Below, in pieces: positions 545 to 27,317 of a DNA stretch of 27,584 nucleotides. Made by a program: the position numbers and the translations under genes. The stretch spans positions 1-27,584 of the IMG/VR virus record IMGVR_UViG_640753024_000006; one strand, written 5' to 3'. Each line of letters opens with the position of its first letter. Position 1 is the stretch's first letter. The DNA comes from a virus. Its lineage: Duplodnaviria > Heunggongvirae > Uroviricota > Caudoviricetes. The notes beneath the pieces were generated by a model, which did not search any database, had not been told where the DNA came from, and saw nothing but the letters and a program-made list of their open reading frames with translations.

Positions 545-1663
545 TCAAACAACCAATTTAACCCATTCCTGACCACGAGTATCGTTATAACGATCGGTGG
601 TTGCCTGGACTTTATGTCCCAGTAATGTTTTTGTATCAATACCCTGCGCACGGTACAGTCGTTCTGACAGGGAGCGTTGTTCATGAAATGTTGGCGGAGT
701 TTTTCCTGCTGGTGGAATTATCCTAGCCAGATCCCGTGCTTTGGCGAAGTAGTCGCTCAGGTTGTCTTTACTCATCGGCTTTGGTTGTTTCTGGTGCCGA
801 CTATGGATTAGATATGGACTTAATATTTTGTCTCGGCACCCATCAATAACTTCTTTTAACGTTATCCCAATAGCATCACAGCGTAGTGTAAGCGGTAACG
901 CCAGACGCATTCCGGTTTTTCCCTGGGTGATATGCAAGTGTTCGTTCCACACATCTGAAAAACGCATGTGGCAAATGTCATCACGGCGCTGACCAGTAAC
1001 AATCGCAAGGAGCATTGCGTTACGGATAAAGTGTTCTTCAGGCGTTGCGTTGTAAATTTTTTGCCAGTCTTCCAGGGTGAGTCTGGCTCTGGTTACTTTA
1101 GGGATCGGTTTACGGGTGGCCTCCGGAGGATTCCATCCAGGAGGAACTTCCCCTGCATGCTGTGCTTCTTTATAAATATCAACCCATAATCCACGATTTA
1201 CTCTCGCTGTGCTGACCATGTCTTTATCCAGCCACTCATCCAGTATTAATGCAAAGTCTCTTACTTCCAGTTCTTTCAATGGATGGTTTCCCAGACGGGA
1301 AACCAGGTGTGCAGCCATTCGGGCTTTTTCTTTGTGAGTTGTAGCTGCAATATCTCCATTTTTCAGTCGCGCGTCCTGTATTTTCAGATATCGATCAACC
1401 CATGCCTTTAATCTGATACCCCGACGTTTTGTTGCTGACGGACTTTCATCAATTTTGCGCATGAAATATTCAGCTTCTGCTGCAGCTATTCGCTGATTGG
1501 CTGTGGAAGCGATTTTTTCTGCTGTGCCTTTGTCTGTTCCGAGACCGTGAAATTTTCCAGTCACAGGGTTTTTATACTGGTAGTAAACCCTGCCAGTTCT
1601 GCGATCAAACTTTTCGTAAAGACCGGTTACGTCAGTGCTGTTTTTTCGTGGCCTCGGTGACAT
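545..1663 (-). CDS. int: Phage integrase, tyrosine recombinase family
   Basis: 372-aa ORF with lambda-integrase-like architecture (N-terminal arm-binding-like region, C-terminal catalytic region with R...H..R and terminal Tyr context); sits next to an excisionase-like gene at the prophage end. Confidence 0.85.
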   Translation of the reverse strand: MSPRPRKNSTDVTGLYEKFDRRTGRVYYQYKNPVTGKFHGLGTDKGTAEKIASTANQRIAAAEAEYFMRKIDESPSATKRRGIRLKAWVDRYLKIQDARLKNGDIAATTHKEKARMAAHLVSRLGNHPLKELEVRDFALILDEWLDKDMVSTARVNRGLWVDIYKEAQHAGEVPPGWNPPEATRKPIPKVTRARLTLEDWQKIYNATPEEHFIRNAMLLAIVTGQRRDDICHMRFSDVWNEHLHITQGKTGMRLALPLTLRCDAIGITLKEVIDGCRDKILSPYLIHSRHQKQPKPMSKDNLSDYFAKARDLARIIPPAGKTPPTFHEQRSLSERLYRAQGIDTKTLLGHKVQATTDRYNDTRGQEWVKLVV

Positions 1664-1901
1664 GAGTTAAAATCTCCTTCAGTGCATCATCATCGCCAGT
1701 ATGAATTTCCGGCGCAATTCCCGTTTCACCAGGTCCAACAAATACTGCCCGGCGATCTATCAGCCAACGCCCACGAATTTTTTGTGGTCTTGGAACGATG
1801 TATCCTAGTTTTCCGTATTTCACCAGGGTAGTGTTTGTTATTGGGAGACTGAACCGTTTTGGTTTCCACTCGTCGAGCGTTATCAGGTACTGTTCGCTCA
1901 T
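1632..1901 (-). CDS. xis: Excisionase (Xis-like)
   Basis: Small basic ORF just upstream of and overlapping int; resembles lambda Xis family; GGAG RBS about 9 nt upstream of the ATG at 1901 (the ORF-track start at 1910 is GTG). Confidence 0.65.
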   Translation of the reverse strand: MSEQYLITLDEWKPKRFSLPITNTTLVKYGKLGYIVPRPQKIRGRWLIDRRAVFVGPGETGIAPEIHTGDDDALKEILTHVTEATKKQH

Positions 1902-13143: not shown

Positions 13144-14199
13144 GTGCGGGTATTACTTCGACCTGTTCCGGTACCGGAACTTGGGCTGGTGGTGCTAAAA
13201 CCGGGCCGTGAATCCATGCAGGTATTTCATAACCCTCGAGTTCTGGTGGAGCCGGAACCGAAAAGCATGCGCGGTCTGCCGTCCGGAGTCGTTCCTGCTG
13301 TTCGCCAGCCGCTGGCGGAGGATAAATCATTACTGCCATTTTTCAGCGATGAGCGGGTGATTCGTGCTGCTGGTGGTGCTGGGGCACTGTCTGACTGGCT
13401 GTTGCGTCATGTCAAATCCTGCCAGTGGCCACACGGCGATTATCATCACAGCGAAACCGTTATTCACCGATATGGTACCGGCGCAATGGTGTTGTGCTGG
13501 CACTGCGACAACCAGCTGCGTGACCAGACCTCCGAATCACTCGGGCAACTTGCTCACCAAAATTTGTCAGCATGGATGATTGACGTCATACGCCATGTAA
13601 TGAATGGCGCGCAGGAGCGTGAATTATCGCTGGCTGAATTATCCTGGTGGGCAACCATAAATAACGTAGCGGACGCACTACCGGAGACGGTGTTACGTCG
13701 TTCGCTGGGATTACGCGCGGAAAAAATTCGCTCAGTATACCGCGAGAGCGACATCGTGCCGGGAGAGCAGACCGCCACCAGCATGCTGAAGCAGCGCACA
13801 AAAAATATTGCGCTACTGCCTCACGCCCACCAGCAAAACCCGCCACAGGAAAAGACGGTGGTAAGCATTGCCGTTGATCCGGAGTCACCGGCTCAGTATC
13901 TCCAGCGCCAGAAACCACGACGGGAAGAGATGCCTGTATACACGCGTTGGGTAAAAACGCAGAAATGCATGACGTGTGGTAATCAGGCAGATGATCCGCA
14001 TCACATCATTGGTCATGGACTGGGAGGGATGGGAACAAAGGCTGATGATTTGTTTGTTATTCCGCTGTGCCGTAAATGCCATAGCGAACTACACGCCGGG
14101 GTAAAAGATTTTGAAGAAAAACACGGCAGCCAGCTGTTGTTGCTGATTCGTTTTTTAATGCACGCGAGAAATTCGGGTGTCCTGAAGTGGAAAGCATGA
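13144..14199 (+). CDS. DUF968-like protein with C-terminal HNH-like Cys/His cluster (YdfU-like)
   Basis: 351 aa; C-terminal CMTCGN...PHHIIGHG...PLCRKCHSELH; GGAGG RBS with GTG start. Confidence 0.6.
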   Translation: MRVLLRPVPVPELGLVVLKPGRESMQVFHNPRVLVEPEPKSMRGLPSGVVPAVRQPLAEDKSLLPFFSDERVIRAAGGAGALSDWLLRHVKSCQWPHGDYHHSETVIHRYGTGAMVLCWHCDNQLRDQTSESLGQLAHQNLSAWMIDVIRHVMNGAQERELSLAELSWWATINNVADALPETVLRRSLGLRAEKIRSVYRESDIVPGEQTATSMLKQRTKNIALLPHAHQQNPPQEKTVVSIAVDPESPAQYLQRQKPRREEMPVYTRWVKTQKCMTCGNQADDPHHIIGHGLGGMGTKADDLFVIPLCRKCHSELHAGVKDFEEKHGSQLLLLIRFLMHARNSGVLKWKA

Positions 14200-15297: not shown

Positions 15298-15322
15298 AAA
15301 CCCGCTTAAATGCGGGTTTTTT
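15298..15322 (+). terminator. tR'-like rho-independent terminator
   Basis: aacccgc-ttaaat-gcgggtt stem-loop followed by TTTTTT. Confidence 0.8.
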
Positions 15323-15395
15323 GCTTAACTCTGTGGACCTTTTTATCTGTAGTTGTAAGATATGGATATTCTTACAATTTAGGTCGGTGAGCTTA

Positions 15396-16160
15396 ATGGA
15401 AGAACAGCACGGTAATTACTTTATAAAACGAATTCAGTTGATTGGAAGGGGTGCATTTGGCTTTGTTGAACACGTTAAGGTTTACAACCTCAACAAGGGT
15501 GAATGTGGGGATTATGCTAGAAAGGTTTTAGCCCCCGAAAAACCAGAGCTTTTGGCGCAAATAGAGCAGTTTAGAAGGCGTTTTAAAAGGGAGGTCGTGT
15601 ATCAATCACATTGCGTACATAGCAATATTGTTCCTATTTATTTGTGCGATTTGTTTGCCGAGAATCCATGGTTCATTATGGATAAAGCAGAATGTGATCT
15701 TGAGCACGAAATAACGAACAACCTTCTTACAACAGATCAAAAAATTTCAATAGTGAAAATGGTATTAGATGGTGTAGCTCACATCCATGCGAAAGGCTAT
15801 TTACACAGAGATATAAAACCATTTAATGTCTTGCGATTTAGCGACGGAACATACAAGGTGTCTGATTTTGGTCTGGTAAAAGATACAAATCCCGAAGGGG
15901 ATACCACTAAATTGACCGAGATCGGTACCCGTATGGGAAGTACAAGATATATGGCTCCCGAGATTTTATATAATGCCGAGTATTCAGTTAAGACTGATGT
16001 TTATGCGGTGGGGCGGTTAATTGAGGACTTAAATTTAGATGATAAAAAAATAAAGCCTATCATAGCGAAGTGTACCAGGATGGATAAAGATGATAGATAT
16101 CAGACAATAGATGATGTGGCGTTTGATTTTGTGCATTCTTTTTTAAGGAGTGAGTCATGA
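15396..16160 (+). CDS. Eukaryotic-like (Hanks-type) Ser/Thr protein kinase, minimal kinase domain (255 aa)
   Basis: Subdomain motifs GRGAFGFV (Gly loop), ARK (Lys), HRDIKPFN (catalytic loop), DFG, MAPE (APE), DVYAVG; AT-rich; ATGA overlap with the downstream gene. Confidence 0.85.
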   Translation: MEEQHGNYFIKRIQLIGRGAFGFVEHVKVYNLNKGECGDYARKVLAPEKPELLAQIEQFRRRFKREVVYQSHCVHSNIVPIYLCDLFAENPWFIMDKAECDLEHEITNNLLTTDQKISIVKMVLDGVAHIHAKGYLHRDIKPFNVLRFSDGTYKVSDFGLVKDTNPEGDTTKLTEIGTRMGSTRYMAPEILYNAEYSVKTDVYAVGRLIEDLNLDDKKIKPIIAKCTRMDKDDRYQTIDDVAFDFVHSFLRSES

Positions 16161-17467: not shown

Positions 17468-18517
17468 ATGACTAATACTGTAAAAATATCCAGTTGTGAG
17501 TTAATCAACGCTGATTGCCTGAAATTTATCCAGACCTTACCGGAAAACTCTGTCGATCTGATAGTCACAGACCCGCCATACTTTAAAGTGAAGCCCGAGG
17601 GCTGGGATAACCAGTGGGAGGGCGACGATGATTACCTGAAATGGCTGGACCAGTGTCTGGCGCAGTTCTGGCGGGTACTGAAGCCTGCCGGAAGTCTTTA
17701 CCTGTTCTGTGGTCATCGCCTGGCATCTGACACCGAAATCATGATGCGTGAGCGCTTTAATGTGCTGAACCACATTATCTGGGCGAAGCCGTCCGGACGC
17801 TGGAACGGGTGCAATAAGGAAAGTCTGCGGGCGTATTTTCCGGCAACAGAGCGCATTCTGTTTGCAGAACATTATCAGGGACCGTATCGCCCGAAAGATG
17901 ATGGCTATGTGGCACAGGGGCGCGAGCTAAAACAGCACGTCATGGCCCCGCTGATTTCTTACTTTCGTGATGCGCGTAAATCACTGGGAATAACGTCAAA
18001 ACAGATAGCGGAAGCCACCGGAAAGAAAAACATGGCTTCGCACTGGTTTGGTACCAGTCAGTGGCAGTTACCGAACGAGGGTGATTACAACAAATTGCAG
18101 GCGTTGTTTGCGCGTGTTGCGGCAGAAAAACATCAGCGCGGGGAACTGGAAAAACCACACCACCAGCTGGTCAGCACATACAGTGAGCTGAACCGGCAGT
18201 ATACGGAATTGCTGAGTGAATATAAAAATTTGCGGCGGTATTTCGGTGTGACGGCGCAGGTTCCGTACACCGATGTCTGGACGCATAAACCGGTGCAGTA
18301 CTATCCAGGGAAACATCCGTGCGAAAAACCGGCAGAAATGCTGCAGCAGATAATCAACGCGAGCAGTCGTCCGGGAGACCTGGTTGCAGATTTTTTTATG
18401 GGTTCAGGTTCAACGGTAAAAGCGGCGATGGCACTGGGGCGTTGTGCGATTGGTGTTGAGCTGGAGACAGGACGTTTTGAACAGACAGTCAGGGAAGTTC
18501 AGGATTTAATCGTTTGA
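17468..18517 (+). CDS. DNA methyltransferase, N6-adenine (or N4-cytosine) beta-class
   Basis: DPPY motif (VTDPPYF) near the N-terminus and FxGxG SAM motif (FFMGSGST) near the C-terminus; 349 aa; same position as the methylase in Stx-type phages. Confidence 0.85.
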   Translation: MTNTVKISSCELINADCLKFIQTLPENSVDLIVTDPPYFKVKPEGWDNQWEGDDDYLKWLDQCLAQFWRVLKPAGSLYLFCGHRLASDTEIMMRERFNVLNHIIWAKPSGRWNGCNKESLRAYFPATERILFAEHYQGPYRPKDDGYVAQGRELKQHVMAPLISYFRDARKSLGITSKQIAEATGKKNMASHWFGTSQWQLPNEGDYNKLQALFARVAAEKHQRGELEKPHHQLVSTYSELNRQYTELLSEYKNLRRYFGVTAQVPYTDVWTHKPVQYYPGKHPCEKPAEMLQQIINASSRPGDLVADFFMGSGSTVKAAMALGRCAIGVELETGRFEQTVREVQDLIV

Positions 18518-21724: not shown

Positions 21725-22279
21725 ATGAAGGTTAATAAAAAGAAACTTGCCGAAATTTTCAACGTGGATCCGCGAACGATTGAACGCTGGCAGTCTCAGG
21801 GACTCCCTTGCGTCTCCGGAGGTGGTAAGGGCGTTGAATCTGTATTTGATACCTCCATGGCAATTCAGTGGTATGCACAGAGGGAGGCTGATATCGAAAA
21901 TGAAAAACTCCGTAAAGAGGTTGAGGATTACAGAGCTGCCAGTGAGGCAGATCTCCAGCCTGGGACTATTGAGTACGAACGCCATCGACTTACGCGTGCG
22001 CAGGCCGACGCACAGGAGCTGAAGAATGCCAGAGACTCCGCAGAAGTGGTGGAAACCGCATTCTGTACTTTCGTGCTGTCACGGATCGCAGGTGAAATTG
22101 CCAGTATTCTTGACGGGATCCCTCTCTCGGTACAGCGGCGTTTTCCGGAACTGGAAAACCGACATGTTGATTTCCTGAAACGGGATATCATCAAAGCCAT
22201 GAACAAAGCAGCCGCGCTGGATGAACTGATATGGCTTACAGCCGTGTTTCGACTTTCTCCGGGGATTATCTCCGCGTAA
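21725..22279 (+). CDS. nu1: Terminase small subunit Nu1 homolog, C-terminus replaced at a deletion junction
   Basis: N-terminal ~170 aa closely resemble lambda Nu1 as I recall it (conserved ...[60 protein letters not shown]...); the last residues run into lom-derived DNA. Confidence 0.85.
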
Positions 22280-22476
22280 CTGACAACAAGGGGAAAACGC
22301 ACGACGTGCTGACCGGAAGTGATGACGGTCGCCACAGCAACACGTCTCTGGCGTGGGGGGCTGGCGTGCAGTTTAACCCGACCGAATCCGTGGCCATTGA
22401 TATTGCTTATGAAGGCTCCGGCAGTGGTGACTGGCGCACTGACGGTTTCATCGTGGGTGTCAGTTATAAATTCTGA
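22240..22476 (+). pseudogene. lom: 3' remnant of lom (Ail/Lom outer-membrane protein family)
   Basis: Translation [25 protein letters not shown]...DGFIVGVSYKF is a Lom/Ail C-terminal beta-barrel end (terminal F); no N-terminal part or signal peptide present. Confidence 0.8.
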
Positions 22477-22502
22477 TTAGCCAGGTAACACAGTGTTATG
22501 AC

Positions 22503-22529
22503 AGCCCGCCGGTTCAGGCGGGCTTTTTT
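22503..22529 (+). terminator. Rho-independent terminator between lom and stf
   Basis: agcccgcc-ggttca-ggcgggct hairpin followed by TTTTTT. Confidence 0.8.
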
Positions 22530-22540
22530 GTGGGGTGAAT

Positions 22541-25500
22541 ATGGCAGTAAAGATTTCAGGTGTACTGAAAGACGGCACAGGAAAACCGGTACAGAACTGC
22601 ACAATCCAGCTGAAAGCAAAACGTAACAGCACCACGGTGGTGGTGAACACACTGGCCTCAGAAAATCCGGATGAAGCCGGGCGTTACAGCATGGACGTTG
22701 AGTACGGTCAGTACAGCGTTATTCTGTTGGTGGAAGGCTTCCCGCCGTCACATGCCGGGACCATCACCGTGTATGAAGATTCCCGACCCGGTACGCTGAA
22801 TGATTTTCTCGGTGCCATGACGGAGGATGATGCCCGTCCTGAGGCACTGCGCCGTTTTGAACTGATGGTGGAAGAGGTGGCGCGTAACGCGTCCGCGGTG
22901 GCACAGAACACGGCAGCCGCGAAGAAGTCAGCCAGCGATGCCGGCACATCAGCCCGTGAGGCGGCAACCCATGCGACTGATGCTGCAGGCTCAGCACGCG
23001 CAGCCAGCACGTCAGCCGGACAGGCCGCGTCGTCGGCTCAGTCAGCGTCTTCCAGCGCAGGAACGGCATCAACAAAGGCTACTGAAGCATCAAAAAGTGC
23101 TGCTGCTGCAGAGTCCTCAAAAAGCGCGGCAGCTACCAGTGCCAGTGCCGCGAAAACGTCAGAAACGAATGCGGCAGCGTCACAAAAATCTGCAGCCACT
23201 TCTGCATCCGCCGCGACCACAAAGGCGTCAGAAGCTGCCACCTCAGCCCGGGATGCGGCGGCCTCAAAAGAGGCAGCGAAATCATCAGAAACGAACGCAT
23301 CATCAAGCGCCAGTAGTGCAGCTTCCTCGGCAACGGCGGCAGGAAATTCCGCGAAGGCGGCAAAGACGTCCGAGACGAACGCCAGGTCTTCTGAAACGGC
23401 AGCGGGACAGAGTGCCTCAGCTGCGGCAGGCTCAAAAACAGCGGCTGCGTCGTCTGCCAGCGCCGCGTCAACAAGTGCCGGGCAGGCCTCAGCCAGTGCC
23501 ACCGCCGCCGGAAAATCGGCAGAAAGCGCCGCATCATCCGCTTCAACAGCCACAACGAAGGCTGGCGAAGCCACTGAGCAGGCCAGCGCAGCAGCGAGGT
23601 CTGCTTCTGCAGCAAAAACCTCTGAAACAAATGCAAAGACTTCAGCAGACAATGCTGCTTCCTCTAAGGCGGCAGCCGCATCGTCCGCTGGTTCAGCGGC
23701 GTCATCGGCATCATCTGCGTCTGCTTCAAAAGATGAGGCGACCAGACAAGCGTCAGCAGCGAAAGGTAGTGCCACGACAGCAACAACGAAAGCATTAGAG
23801 GCGGCAGGCAGTGCGACGGCTGCATCTCAGAGCAAAGTTGCTGCTGAATCCGCGGCAACGCGCGCCGAGACAGCGGCAAAACGGGCAGAGGATATTGCAT
23901 CCGCCGTGGCGCTTGAGGATGCGAGCACGACGAAAAAGGGGATAGTCCAGCTCAGCAGTGCGACCAACAGTACGTCTGAAACGCTGGCGGCAACGCCAAA
24001 GGCAGTAAAATCAGCCTATGACAATGCAGAGAAACGTCTGCAGAAAGACCAGAACGGCGCTGATATACCCGATAAGGGACGCTTCCTGAACAACATTAAC
24101 GCGGTCAGTAAAACAGACTTTGCTGATAAGCGTGGTATGCGTTATGTGCGGGTTAACGCTCCTGCAGGTGCAACATCTGGAAAATATTACCCTGTTGTTG
24201 TTATGCGTTCTGCTGGCTCAGTAAGCGAACTGGCATCAAGGGTCATTATCACCACGGCAACGCGAACCGCAGGCGATCCGATGAATAACTGCGAGTTTAA
24301 CGGATTTGTTATGCCTGGTGGCTGGACTGACAGGGGGCGTTATGCTTATGGAATGTTCTGGCAATATCAAAACAATGAACGAGCCATCCACTCAATAATG
24401 ATGAGTAATAAGGGCGATGATTTGCGCTCTGTGTTCTATGTTGATGGCGCTGCTTTCCCTGTTTTTGCGTTTATCGAAGATGGCCTGTCAATATCCGCAC
24501 CTGGTGCTGATCTCGTTGTTAATGATACGACCTATAAGTTTGGTGCAACAAATCCAGCGACTGAATGTATCGCGGCGGACGTTATCCTTGATTTTAAGAG
24601 TGGGCGTGGTTTTTATGAGTCCCATTCGTTAATCGTTAACGATAACTTGTCGTGCAAAAAACTTTTTGCCACAGACGAAATTGTAGCGCGTGGTGGTAAT
24701 CAGATTCGAATGATAGGTGGGGAGTATGGTGCATTATGGCGTAATGATGGCGCTAAAACTTACCTGCTGCTTACCAATCAAGGTGATGTTTATGGTGGCT
24801 GGAATACATTAAGACCGTTTGCTATTAATAACGCAACCGGCGAACTGGTTATTGGAACCAAACTGTCCGCAAGTCTGAACGGTAATGCATTAACAGCAAC
24901 AAAGCTGCAAACGCCAAGACTGGTTTCTGGTGTTGAGTTTGATGGTTCCAGAGATATTACTTTAACCGCTGCGCATGTGGCTGCTTTTGCCAGAAGGGCA
25001 ACGGATACATATGCCGATGCGGATGGTGGCGTTCCCTGGAATGCCGAATCAGGCGCTTACAATGTCACCCGCTCTGGCGACACCTATATTCTGGTTAACT
25101 TCTATACCGGAGTCGGAAGTTGCCGGACCCTGCAGATGAAGGCGCATTACAGAAATGGTGGTCTGTTCTACCGTTCCTCAAGAGATGGCTATGGTTTTGA
25201 GGAAGACTGGGCAGAAGTTTATACCTCGAAAAATCTTCCACCAGAAAGCTACCCAGTCGGCGCACCAATCCCGTGGCCATCAGATACCGTTCCGTCTGGT
25301 TATGCCCTGATGCAGGGGCAGACTTTTGACAAATCTGCTTACCCGAAACTTGCAGCCGCTTATCCGTCAGGTGTGATCCCTGATATGCGTGGCTGGACGA
25401 TTAAGGGCAAACCTGCCAGTGGTCGGGCCGTATTGTCTCAGGAACAGGACGGCATTAAATCGCACACCCACAGCGCCAGCGCATCCAGTACGGATTTGGG

Positions 25501-25954
25501 GACGAAAACCACATCGTCGTTTGATTACGGCACTAAATCCACGAATAACACCGGGGCGCATACGCACAGTCTGAGTGGCTCTACGGGGTCTGCCGGTGTT
25601 CATACTCATGGTAATGGTATTCGTTGGCCAGGAGGCGGCGGTTCTGCGTTATCATTTTATGATGGCGGTGGGTTCACTTATGTCCAGAATTCACAGTATC
25701 AAGTAAGCCCGGAGACTTCTTCCTATAGATCGTATTATCAACGTATTCAGACACAGTCAGCAGGTGCTCATACCCACTCGCTGTCTGGTACTGCAGCAAG
25801 TTCTGGCGCACATGCACATACTGTAGGTATTGGTGCGCATACGCACTCCGTTGCGATTGGTTCACATGGACACACCATCACCGTTAACGCTGCGGGTAAC
25901 GCGGAAAACACCGTCAAAAACATCGCATTTAACTATATTGTGAGGCTTGCATAA
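22541..25954 (+). CDS. stf: Side tail fibre protein Stf (long Ala/Ser-rich repeat shaft, C-terminal HxH-repeat tip)
   Basis: N-terminus [26 protein letters not shown]... matches lambda Stf as I recall it; ~350-aa Ala/Ser/Thr-rich low-complexity region with KxSETNA repeats; C-terminal GAHTHS/HxH repeats typical of fibre tips. Confidence 0.9.
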
Positions 25955-26538
25955 TGGCATTCAGAATGAGTGAACAAGCACGGACCATAAAAATTTATAA
26001 TCTGCTGGCCGGAACTAATGAATTTATTGGTGAAGGTGACGCATATATTCCGCCTCATACAGGTCTGCCAGCAAACAGTACCGATATTGCACCACCAGAT
26101 ATTCCTGCTGGCTTTGTGGCTGTTTTCAACAGTGATGAGGCATCGTGGCATCTCGTTGAAGACCATCGGGGTAAAACGGTTTATGACGTAGCGTCAGGGG
26201 ACGAGTTATTTATTTCTGAACTCGGTCCGTTACCGGAAAATGTTACCTGGTTATCGCCGGAAGGGGAGTTTCAGAAGTGGAACGGCACAGCCTGGGTGAA
26301 GGATACGGAAGCAGAAAAACTGTTCCGGATCCGGGAGGCGGAAGAAACAAAAAACAACCTGATGCAGGTAGCCAGTGAGCATATTGCGCCGCTTCAGGAT
26401 GCTGCAGATCTGGAAATTGCAACGGAGGAAGAAACCTCATTGCTGGAAGCCTGGAAAAAGTATCGGGTGTTGCTGAACCGTGTTGATACATCAACTGCAC
26501 CTGATATTGAGTGGCCTACGAACCCTGTCAGGGAGTAA
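25954..26538 (+). CDS. tfa: Tail fibre assembly chaperone Tfa
   Basis: 194 aa; start overlaps the stf stop (TAATG); conserved Tfa C-terminal region (...[25 protein letters not shown]...). Confidence 0.85.
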
Positions 26539-26592: not shown

Positions 26593-27249
26593 CTATTTTT
26601 TCCCTGAAGCGGAAAACATTACTACAGTACCTTGAACCTTGGTTTTAACATTCTCGAAATGCTCTGAGAGTATATGTGTTAAGCCTTCTTCGGAATCTTT
26701 TGTGTTTGAAAAGATGCCTTTCTGATTGTAAATGCGCATCAGTTTTTGACCGAAGCTATTGTGCACAACTCCATCGCCAAGAATTGTGGCTCCGTATAGA
26801 GTTCCATCGTCAGTTAAGGCCTGCGCCGCATTGCGTATTACACAGCTTTTTGTAGATATATTTCCAGGCAGGCAGTGAAGAAGGTAAAACATGGAAATGG
26901 AATCAAATTGACCATGTAACGCCGCGGGATAAGGTTCAAAAACATCATGGCTAATTTTATGTTTAATTTTTGATTCCCCAGCCCTTGTCGATGCCGCGTT
27001 CAGGCTAGCTTCGTTCAAATCCATTAAAGATATCAGACTACTCTCAGGTACGTGGGTAAGGTAAAACCCAGTTCCAACACCAATATCCAGATGGTTGTTA
27101 CCTACATGTTCCAGAAAGTGTGGAAGAAGGTGTTCCTTTGTAGGACATCCCCATGCAAGCCGATTTGATACTCCCAAAACCCACCAGTCATAAAGCTTTA
27201 GGGTAAGTGGTGTGTAAATTTTAGCCCCATCATCTGTGTTTTTTTTCAT
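26593..27249 (-). CDS. Class I SAM-dependent methyltransferase (substrate unknown), AT-rich
   Basis: Motif I HLDIGVGTGFY (hh-D-h-G-x-G-x-G); GGTGA RBS before ATG 27249; opposite strand to the fibre genes. Confidence 0.75.
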   Translation of the reverse strand: MKKNTDDGAKIYTPLTLKLYDWWVLGVSNRLAWGCPTKEHLLPHFLEHVGNNHLDIGVGTGFYLTHVPESSLISLMDLNEASLNAASTRAGESKIKHKISHDVFEPYPAALHGQFDSISMFYLLHCLPGNISTKSCVIRNAAQALTDDGTLYGATILGDGVVHNSFGQKLMRIYNQKGIFSNTKDSEEGLTHILSEHFENVKTKVQGTVVMFSASGKK

Positions 27250-27317
27250 TGATTTCACCATGTTATAGTTTTATTTGTGAATTAAATCAATTATGGCGAT
27301 GAATTACAAGGGGTTAA

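Follow-up and report, generated by a model that had tools for sequence, protein, structure and literature searches.

Genes and domains at the locus

The window, by which we mean the whole 27,584-nucleotide stretch of viral DNA that was analysed, carries a lambda-type side tail fibre gene (Table 1). Its product is a member of the Stf/StfR group: it has the PF08400 domain and a gp37-like tip, and the gene lies in the order lom - stf - tfa, which is the same in K-12 Rac and in lambda. Copies of stfR in E. coli genomes and in phage records share 96-97% of its nucleotides. Pfam matches of the product are phage_tail_N (PF08400, all 134 profile positions, E=1.6e-71), Gp34_trimer, Collar and Phage_fiber. 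The list of open reading frames starts the gene at GTG 22535, 6 nt ahead of ATG 22541. This start is probably too early, since homologues, lambda Stf among them, begin with MAVKISG, and the ATG is probably the true one.

Residues 1-94 of lambda Stf, to which PDB 9e7m is limited, align with our protein from MAVKISG at about E=2e-51 (2.3e-51). In cryo-EM of Ur-lambda, 12 copies of this N-terminal domain form a collar on the lambda tail (PMC12617516). The final ~30 residues of the domain already lie within the heptad register of the shaft described below. Beyond the shaft, the region that resembles Mu tail fibre protein S is probably the transition toward the hinge, judging from homology to lambda (domain map in PMC12617516). 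The C-terminal tip matches the tip of T4 gp37 (PDB 2xgf) with E=5e-82 across aa 902-1137. The prophage itself has no tail genes, Nu1 being joined to lom', and for this reason assembly of this fibre copy onto a virion is doubtful and may never occur.

Table 1. Coordinates of the side tail fibre gene, its neighbours and the features within it (window positions)
Feature	Positions	Strand	Basis or remark
Lom C-terminal fragment	22231-22476		Upstream of stf; ORF list and Pfam
stfR-type side tail fibre gene	22541-25954	+	1137 aa from ATG 22541 (probable start)
N-terminal collar-forming domain (PF08400, 'PfN')	22541-22942	+	Pfam and PDB matches
Heptad shaft, probable coiled coil	22877-23926	+	aa 113-462; autocorrelation, register, AlphaFold2, conservation
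ORF of 286 aa in the +1 frame, by-product	22938-23798	+	1 stop against 1.3 expected
ORF of 245 aa, antisense, counterpart of lambda orf206b	23038-23775	-	phrog_560, E=4e-116, full length
ORF of 167 aa, second open antisense frame, by-product	23133-23636	-	3 stops against 11.1 +/- 2.6 after codon shuffling
KTSETNA, copy 1	23153-23173	+	K at heptad position b
KSSETNA, copy 2	23279-23299	+	Motif search
KTSETNA, copy 3	23363-23383	+	Motif search
KTSETNA, copy 4	23615-23635	+	Motif search
Segment of 315 nt (15 heptads, 105 aa) missing from lambda stf	23450-23764	+	DNA and protein alignment
Shaft end and fibre-repeat region	23852-24103	+	Matches Mu tail fibre protein S, PDB 5yvq, chain residues 88-172
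T4 gp37-like receptor-binding tip, C-terminal, His-x-His repeats	25244-25951	+	PDB 2xgf; Pfam Collar, Phage_fiber
tfa, tail fibre assembly chaperone gene	25954-26538	+	Pfam Caudo_TAP, E=1.9e-44

A strict heptad register in the shaft

A preliminary description of this DNA, made from its letters, had noticed about 350 residues rich in Ala, Ser and Thr at 22880-23900 and had taken them for the shaft of the Stf fibre. Both points hold: these three residues make up 66-78% of each 50-residue block between ORF residues 151 and 450. Residue identity is autocorrelated at every lag that is a multiple of 7, from 7 to 98 (14 peaks, z = 7.8-10.8 relative to shuffled sequences), so the periodicity goes far beyond compositional bias. 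The period corresponds to 50 consecutive heptads of the form A-x-x-S-A-x-x with zero register breaks. Position a is occupied by Ala in 47 heptads and by Val in the other 3; position d is Ser in 37 of the 50 and Ile in one, and position e is Ala in 36. Charged residues occur at b, e and g and never at a. Positions a and d thus do not present the Leu/Ile/Val core of textbook cases; the core is one of small and partly polar residues, which Ghosh et al. called unusual (PMC3368898). Lacking such residues in its core, the shaft departs from the canonical hydrophobic coiled coil. It is an atypical member of the heptad coiled coils whose fold is experimentally supported in homologues. We also considered another register, in which the first position becomes d and the fifth a, giving an Ala/Ala core. 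We rejected it, since it would bury 11 Lys/Glu and one Asp among 50 and since the conservation order a, d, e fits the first assignment.

The sequence K[T/S]SETNA, described earlier as the recurring unit, is real and rare. It has only four copies, always with K at heptad position b; shuffles that keep the make-up of each heptad position give a mean of 0.004 copies and a maximum of 1 (5000 trials). The true unit is the heptad A-x-x-S-A-x-x. The searchable literature holds nothing relevant on the KTSETNA motif.

Shaft length across homologues

We compared lengths by scanning loci; the matches listed for the N-terminal 140 aa, at least 120 of them, were 128-244 aa long and mostly partial. Among 107 unique shafts of the Stf-N type, 74 have a run of 47 Ala heptads. 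Minor classes have 30, 31, 32, 34 or 35 heptads, and there are single cases of 46 and 10. Despite these different lengths, 102 of the 107 keep a single register. Fibres with other, unrelated N-termini have the same A-x-x-S-[A/E]-x-x profile over 18-106 heptads, and one of them (L132) combines runs of 60 and 106. Small slippage-like indels were seen in three of the 107 shafts: a gain of 9 aa by duplication of SKSAAAAES (L068), a gain of 4 aa, TSAS (L004), and a loss of 3 aa (L028).

The 1050-nt shaft is covered to at least 80% in 3600 of 5426 complete E. coli genomes; in all, this collection contains 17,985 stf matches. Where full-length genome matches were sampled, the span in the record equalled that in the query in 20 of 21, at 86-97% identity. 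The suggestion that fibre length varies between strains therefore survives in part. Shaft length is not invariant, since the Stf-N set ranges from 10 to 47 heptads and lambda has 15 fewer than our fibre; within the shaft class studied here, it is essentially fixed. The differences look like rare whole-heptad events or exchange of modules, not like strain-to-strain slippage.

The fold of the shaft and alternative explanations

We consider, with a probability of about 0.9, that the region is the proximal shaft of a lambda/Rac-type side tail fibre and forms a parallel alpha-helical coiled coil, most probably trimeric, with 50 uninterrupted heptads. Besides the sustained seven-residue period, two lines of evidence come from the family and from modelling. 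In 75 unique shafts of this class column entropy is low at a (0.017), d (0.030) and e (0.046) and higher at b (0.259), c (0.200), f (0.236) and g (0.147); low values at a, d and e and high ones at b, c and f are the pattern of buried and exposed positions in a coiled coil. AlphaFold2, run on a single sequence and a single chain, gives one continuous helix over residues 4-405 of the segment, which are aa 98-499 of the protein (mean pLDDT 71.7, pTM 0.26), and its confidence dips near aa 254-264 and 385-397. A sequence search of the PDB returned no solved structure of the shaft, its matches being limited to the collar, to the part that resembles Mu S (aa 438 onward) and to distal parts. Homologues have been studied directly. 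Ur-lambda Stf is a trimer in which residues 1-91 form the collar and 92-101 a linker, followed by a proximal coiled coil (102-393) and a hinge; the proximal domain was modelled as a trimeric bundle and fitted to cryo-EM/ET density (PMC12617516). For the 'PCoil' located behind the same N-terminal domain in fibre proteins of EHEC prophages, CD shows an alpha-helical structure with reversible melting near 45-49 C, and SEC-MALLS shows a trimer; PCoil lengths differ in multiples of seven (PMC3368898). The homologous domain is in both reports a trimeric coiled coil, and it is from these homologues that we infer the oligomeric state and the length of our protein.

The main alternatives concern the fold, the origin of the repeat and the meaning of the overlapping open frames. 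The shaft could instead be beta-structured, as a triple beta-helix or beta-spiral, or be a disordered low-complexity linker. Beta-structured shafts are common among phage fibres, the sequence is of low complexity with few large hydrophobic residues, and AlphaFold3 misfolded full-length lambda Stf (PMC12617516). However, a strict period of seven with conserved a, d and e is characteristic of an alpha-helical coiled coil, Ala would not stay invariant at every seventh residue over 75 variants if the stretch were a disordered linker, and the 400-residue predicted helix, the CD of PCoil and the trimeric bundle fitted in lambda all point the same way. We regard this alternative as extremely unlikely; of the 'coiled or beta-helical' shaft proposed in the preliminary description, the first half is the one favoured. 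It was also proposed that the DNA repeats are prone to slippage or recombination, so that the shaft would be a contingency locus built on a tandem repeat, with fibre length often varying between strains. In favour of this one can cite the differing heptad numbers within the family, the small duplications or deletions in the three shafts mentioned above and a single genome match (H70) that is 3 nt shorter than the query. Against it, Tandem Repeats Finder reports no array spanning the shaft, only two trivial ones (40 nt and 23 nt). No exact direct repeat is longer than 11 nt, and 11-mers are not repeated more often than after codon shuffling (2 observed, 4.5 +/- 2.7 expected). The DNA unit aaaacgtcagaaacgaatgc, which encodes KTSETNA and was thought to recur, has no exact recurrence; its relatives are 77-85% identical, so that high-identity head-to-tail units are not what is found. 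A 21-nt period emerges only as a statistical signal (identity 0.455 at lag 21 and ~0.36 at other multiples of 3). The periodicity resides in the protein, not in the DNA. Nor is anything repeated above the heptad profile: in self-comparison at heptad offsets (14, 28, 77, 84 and 112 residues) the best 35-aa self-match scores 0.66 against a null of 0.63 +/- 0.03, which means that the 15 heptads extra to lambda cannot be called a recent internal duplication. Among the close relatives compared, copy-number polymorphism was not seen. The identical 47-heptad run in 74 of the 107 shafts, the exact length kept in 20 of 21 genome matches despite 3-14% nucleotide divergence, and the wide occurrence of the 1050-nt form in E. 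coli leave slippage unsupported. This explanation is very improbable and already largely refuted.

There remain the open frames. As first described, long stop-free frames run on both strands: between 22880 and 23900 the +1 frame contains 1 stop, and two antisense frames contain 2 and 3. The longer antisense ORF, of 245 aa, belongs to the family of lambda orf206b, which in the annotation of the lambda reference genome lies antisense to the shaft of orf-401. It might be a genuine overlapping gene that constrains the shaft sequence. It matches a PHROG family of 249 positions end to end, its counterpart is annotated in lambda, and the other open antisense frame has far fewer stops than codon shuffling predicts. 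Nevertheless, the 2 stops in its own frame are exactly what the codon set of Stf predicts (2.1 +/- 1.3 after shuffling). This frame reads GCN as GCN, TCN as GAN and ACN as GTN. By the genetic code, only a Tyr codon or an NNT-CAN codon pair on the stf strand can place a stop in it, and both are scarce here. The wobble positions of the ORF coincide with those of stf, so that conservation of Stf always brings conservation of the ORF, and for the same reason a test of substitution patterns is uninformative. It has no Pfam match, no promoter-like site was found on either strand in 22100-24200, and knock-down of orf206b in lambda gave no plaque phenotype (PMC10695390). We judge it to be a by-product of the codon composition of the shaft and not a gene; the contrary is highly unlikely. 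The depletion of stops in the frame of the 167-aa ORF is accounted for by avoidance of TA (8 dinucleotides, 35.5 expected). This ORF has no family match in Pfam or PHROG; its frame is annotated as gp23/gp24 in NC_049953.1. The 286-aa ORF likewise has no match in either collection, and in its frame each codon begins with the second base of an stf codon, a position at which T makes up only 2% of bases. Codons of the types GCN, TCN, ACN, AAR and GAR together with TA depletion thus explain the open +1 and antisense frames, and the earlier attribution of these frames to the composition of the region was right.

Relation to known systems

A close relative is StfR of the Rac cryptic prophage in E. 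coli K-12 (P76072, 1120 aa), with 95.7% nucleotide identity over 95% of the gene. It has the 47-heptad Ala run and a lom'-stfR-tfaR context in a defective prophage, as here. The 17-aa difference in length lies outside the shaft (the match is in two pieces), and lom' is interrupted by an IS5-like element in Rac, whereas it is joined to Nu1 in our prophage. Lambda/Ur-lambda Stf (2025, PMC12617516) resembles our protein in the collar domain, in heptad register and profile and in the lom-stf-tfa order. Common parts of the shaft are 76-93% identical in nucleotides. The 315-nt block, whose breakpoints are ambiguous by a few nt, is the sole indel between the two shafts; it would make our rod ~15.5 nm longer than that of lambda with its 35 heptads. 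The middle and distal parts differ, ours having a Gp34_trimer-like domain and 1137 aa against 774.

PCoil of the EHEC collagen-like fibre proteins EPclA/B (Ghosh et al. 2012, PMC3368898) is also an Ala/Ser-rich heptad region of low complexity right after PfN. It is short (~residues 101-245), richer in Glu and 'loosely' periodic, and collagen triplets follow; our shaft is strictly periodic over 50 heptads, with a Pf2 repeat and gp37-like parts behind it. A protein with EPcl-type architecture was recovered among the homologues (L101).

Heptad coiled coils with small core residues are also found outside phages. The 'alanine zipper' trimer Lpp-56 has an Ala core instead of Leu/Ile, and our literature search returned honeybee silk and PvMSP3, with Ala or other small residues in the core. 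None of the three is known to be homologous to the shaft, and the likeness is one of resemblance only. We know of no case among them in which Ser dominates d over tens of consecutive heptads.

Proposed architecture and its meaning

The same explanation extends to how such a shaft would be built and used. Three chains would contribute one N-terminal collar domain each to the tail and merge into a rod with a small-residue core, in which Ala at a and Ser at d have Ala at e beside them; b, c and f would be exposed to solvent. The far end of the rod would bear the hinge and the gp37-like receptor-binding tip, and the rod itself, as a rigid spacer, would determine how far the fibre reaches. With a rise of ~0.148 nm per residue, its 350 residues would come to ~52 nm. 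KTSETN is probably the archetypal heptad of the module family, of which our shaft is a degenerate version substituted by Ala and Ser. The repeat is probably maintained at the protein level by structural selection and not by recent DNA duplication; changes in length are therefore rare and almost always comprise whole heptads.

A more speculative possibility, which we put forward tentatively and consider rather unlikely, is that rods of the A-x-x-S-A-x-x type, derived from 'AKTSETN', are a structurally distinct class of trimeric coiled coil. Such a class would have an Ala/Ser and possibly hydrated core and very long runs free of stutters and stammers. It might serve phages with unrelated baseplates as an exchangeable, quantised molecular ruler, and sporadic K-x-S-E-T-N heptads might be polar staples that set the register of a core with no other features.

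The shaft domain, its fold and whole-heptad differences in length are already published for close homologues, so ours is an ordinary case and the biological payoff is small. For annotation, it matters that gene callers are misled by the ORFs in the antisense and +1 frames, which are artefacts that can be predicted, namely the lambda orf206b family (phrog_560) and gp23/gp24 of NC_049953.1. Masking the low-complexity stretch, or taking it for a hypervariable repeat, would be a mistake, as it is a conserved and strictly periodic structural rod. Since the number of heptads sets the length of the rod, the existence of distinct classes of length, at 30-35, at 47 and at as many as 106 heptads, offers a simple handle for engineering or comparing fibre reach.

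The fibre gene and the prophage around it

Pfam finds four domains in the side tail fibre ORF, namely the prophage tail fibre N-terminal domain PF08400 (E=1.6e-71), Gp34_trimer-like, Collar and Phage_fiber, the repeat of which is His-rich; the gp37-like tip is matched by PDB 2xgf (E=5e-82). At the DNA level the gene shares 96-97% identity with stfR genes from E. coli prophages and lambdoid phages, and 95.7% with stfR of the K-12 Rac prophage. Since the homologues, lambda Stf (PDB 9e7m) included, begin with MAVKISG, we take ATG 22541 to be the true start, with a predicted product of 1137 aa, and residues are counted from it.

Features discussed in the text (nucleotide positions in the window)
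Feature	Position	Strand	Remark
Nu1 ORF and adjoining Lom fragment	21725-22476		upstream
Terminator-like hairpin	22503-22530		between lom fragment and stf start codon 22541
Side tail fibre ORF (long form)	22535-25954	+	contains shaft
Shaft, aa 113-462	22877-23926	+	50 consecutive heptads, one register
245-aa antisense ORF	23038-23775	-	over shaft
Gap in lambda stf	23450-23764		315 nt
Caudo_TAP tail fibre assembly gene (tfa)	25954-26538		next after fibre gene

A Lom C-terminal fragment lies immediately upstream of the fibre gene. An ORF for the terminase small subunit Nu1, matching positions 1-164 of the 164 in Pfam Nu1, is joined directly to the last 80 residues of Lom, read in a different frame (Ail_Lom profile 120-199). 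Every head and tail gene that would lie between nu1 and lom appears to have been deleted. The prophage is defective, yet its stf-tfa pair is intact, as in K-12 Rac, likewise defective. The hairpin before stf is strong (8 pairs, 7 of them G-C, then a T run). Other prophage genes, at 545-1663 (-), 13144-14199, 15321-16160, 17468-18517 and 26593-27261 (-), include those for a lambda-type integrase, a DUF968/HNH protein, a protein with a eukaryotic-type Ser/Thr protein kinase domain, an N6/N4 DNA methylase and, immediately after tfa, a SAM-dependent methyltransferase.

A repeat of the protein, not of the DNA

The preliminary description saw here an Ala/Ser/Thr-rich block with recurring K(T/S)SETNA units. 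The block is real (66-78% A+S+T per 50 residues) and so is its periodicity, but the unit is a heptad, not KxSETNA. Residue-identity autocorrelation peaks (z = 7.8-10.8) at each lag that is a multiple of 7, as far as lag 98, and at no other lag. In the heptads (a to g, A-x-x-S-A-x-x), position a is Ala in 47 of 50 and Val in 3, d is Ser in 37, and e is Ala in 36, Lys in 6 and Glu in 5; b, c, f and g hold a mixture of A/S/T/K/E/N. K[T/S]SETNA has only four copies (nt 23153, 23279, 23363 and 23615), all four with K at position b. Shuffling within heptad positions yields a mean of 0.004 copies and at most one (5000 trials), and the sequence is a genuine motif rather than the repeat unit. Since A-K-T-S-E-T-N is near the consensus heptad in more distant fibres, the shaft looks, on such comparison, like a degenerate, Ala/Ser-substituted version of that archetype.

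The repeat resides in the protein, not in the DNA. Tandem Repeats Finder reports only two trivial arrays of 40 and 23 nt, and the longest exact direct repeat within the 1050-nt shaft is 11 nt; two 11-mers are repeated, where codon shuffling gives 4.5 +/- 2.7. The stretches of DNA that encode KTSETNA share 77-85% identity, and the 21-nt periodicity of the shaft DNA is a statistical signal only. No higher-order protein repeat beyond the heptad profile was found (0.66 vs null 0.63 +/- 0.03).

Several lines point to an alpha-helical coiled coil, so that the earlier guess of a coiled shaft was right. AlphaFold2, run on aa 95-500 as a single chain, predicts an unbroken helix from aa 98 to 499 (mean pLDDT 71.7). 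Among 75 unique shafts of the same length class, at least 87.7% identical pairwise, column entropy averages 0.017, 0.030 and 0.046 for positions a, d and e, as against 0.26 for b, 0.20 for c, 0.24 for f and 0.15 for g. Such a contrast between buried and exposed positions is the signature of a coiled coil, here with a predicted core of a and d flanked by e. Assigning the heptad the other way (position 1 as d, position 5 as a) was rejected because 11 Lys/Glu residues would enter the core. For homologues the fold is settled by published work: the Ur-lambda side fibre is a trimer, where Stf residues 1-91 form a dodecameric collar, 92-101 a linker, 102-393 the proximal coiled coil and 394-422 a hinge (PMC12617516). 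The homologous PCoil region of EHEC prophage fibre proteins is alpha-helical by CD, with reversible melting near 45-49 C, and trimeric by SEC-MALLS (PMC3368898). A PDB sequence search found no solved structure covering the shaft itself.

Length of the shaft

Aligned to the fibre gene of the window, lambda stf shows one clean gap of exactly 15 heptads. A census of 107 unique shafts joined to the Stf N-terminal domain gave a 47-heptad Ala run, as in the window, in 74; smaller classes have 30, 31, 32, 34 or 35 heptads, and 46 and 10 occur once each. A single register is kept throughout in 102 of the 107. The 1050-nt shaft is covered to at least 80% in 3600 of 5426 complete E. coli genomes, and of 21 rows sampled along the ranked list, 20 have a match exactly as long as the query (86-97% identity). 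PCoil, the coiled-coil domain of EHEC prophage fibre proteins, likewise varies in length by multiples of seven (Ghosh et al. 2012, PMC3368898). Fibres with unrelated N-termini share the profile A-x-x-S-[A/E]-x-x over 18, 24, 43, 60 and 106 heptads. From the length classes and the conserved span in genomes it follows that shaft length is quantised in heptads, differing between fibre types and stable within a type.

Slippage, which had been suggested as a source of length variation, is supported by nothing: the span is kept in 20 of the 21 sampled rows and the DNA holds no array across the shaft. Small register-breaking indels occur in just three of the 107 shafts (+4, -3 and +9 residues), all in viral contigs: tandem duplications of 4 aa (TSAS, register shift +4) in L004 and of 9 aa (SKSAAAAES, shift +2) in L068, and a 3-aa deletion (shift -3) in L028. 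These candidate variants are the sole slippage-like events seen.

A further two-register case among the 107, L101 (MAG contig SFGJ01000067.1), is a collagen chimera, in which the Stf N-terminal domain is followed by a short heptad coiled coil and then by Gly-X-Y collagen-like triplets, the EPcl architecture of Ghosh et al. 2012. The 1667-aa fibre protein ORF of L132 (IMGVR_UViG_3300045988_163358), with an unrelated N-terminus, has two A-x-x-S-A-x-x runs in the same register modulo 7, of 60 heptads (aa 147-566) and 106 heptads (aa 679-1420), with Ala at position a in 58 and 104 of them; the 742-residue run would be ~110 nm long by the usual rise per residue.

Open alternative frames

The preliminary description attributed the open frames over the shaft to its repetitive composition, correctly, as codon shuffling reproduces both the +1 frame (1 stop vs 1.3 expected) and the frame of the 245-aa antisense ORF (2 vs 2.1). 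Stops counted over 22880-23900 number 1 in the +1 frame, 30 in the codon-aligned antisense frame, and 2 and 3 in the other antisense frames. Most of the 30 arise because the region has 29 TCA Ser codons, each of them TGA on the opposite strand. The scarcity of stops in the two reproduced frames follows from the genetic code. Codons of the +1 frame begin with the second base of the stf codons, and T makes up only 2% of bases at that position. The antisense frame of the 245-aa ORF shares its wobble positions with stf: GCN becomes GCN, TCN becomes GAN and ACN becomes GTN, so that a stop needs a Tyr codon or an NNT-CAN pair on the opposite strand. The third open frame (antisense, codon starts (x-22535) mod 3 = 0, 22877-23926) has 3 stops vs 11.1 +/- 2.6 after codon shuffling. 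This shortage is consistent with strong, four-fold depletion of TA dinucleotides in the shaft (8 vs 35.5 expected) and implies that NCT codons before an A-starting codon are avoided.

The 245-aa ORF matches phrog_560 end to end (E=4e-116) and is the counterpart of orf206b, which the lambda reference genome places on the strand opposite to stf, likewise over the shaft; knock-down of orf206b in lambda gave no plaque phenotype (PMC10695390). Neither strand has a promoter-like site within 22100-24200, and the alternative-frame ORFs, which match no Pfam family, are treated as probable artefacts. RefSeq NC_049953.1 (phage ev099; L196) has two antisense ORFs annotated over the shaft, the 'hypothetical proteins' gp23 and gp24 (804-1666, minus strand), and lacks an annotation of the true + frame there; in this record stf reads open over 301-2472 and is then interrupted by a stop.

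Records of stf in databases

Lambda-type stf of the orf-401 form, ~91% identical to the Stf N-terminus encoded in the window (L083-L100, L105, L107, L109, L113-L114, L116), sits in assemblies labelled Pseudomonas, Shewanella, Desulfosporosinus, Oceanobacillus, Kitasatospora and others. Several of these contigs are ~48.4-48.5 kb and several names give coverage near 1x; this looks like contamination with lambda DNA. The 120 matches listed for proteins with the N-terminus of 22541-22960 are all 128-244 aa, most of them 'partial', and stop at or soon after the shaft start. Since E. coli genomes also have stf sequences at several places each (median 3, up to 16), short-read assemblies probably break in or near stf.

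What the shaft might do

K-12 StfR, lambda Stf and the PCoil domain are known examples of this feature. Mildly new, in descriptive terms only, are how strictly and how far the Ala(a)/Ser(d) register is kept, its presence in unrelated fibres up to 106 heptads, and the lack of an atomic structure for such a shaft in a PDB sequence search.

A strictly periodic, conserved, helix-forming rod joins the collar domain to the hinge and tip, and literature on homologues describes it as trimeric and parallel. At ~0.148 nm per residue, 350 residues would give a rod of ~52 nm, ~15.5 nm longer than that of lambda. One might speculate that the polar K-x-S-E-T-N heptads help to set chain register in an otherwise uniform Ala/Ser core. 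The rod itself would be a rigid spacer that sets the reach of the gp37-like tip from the tail.
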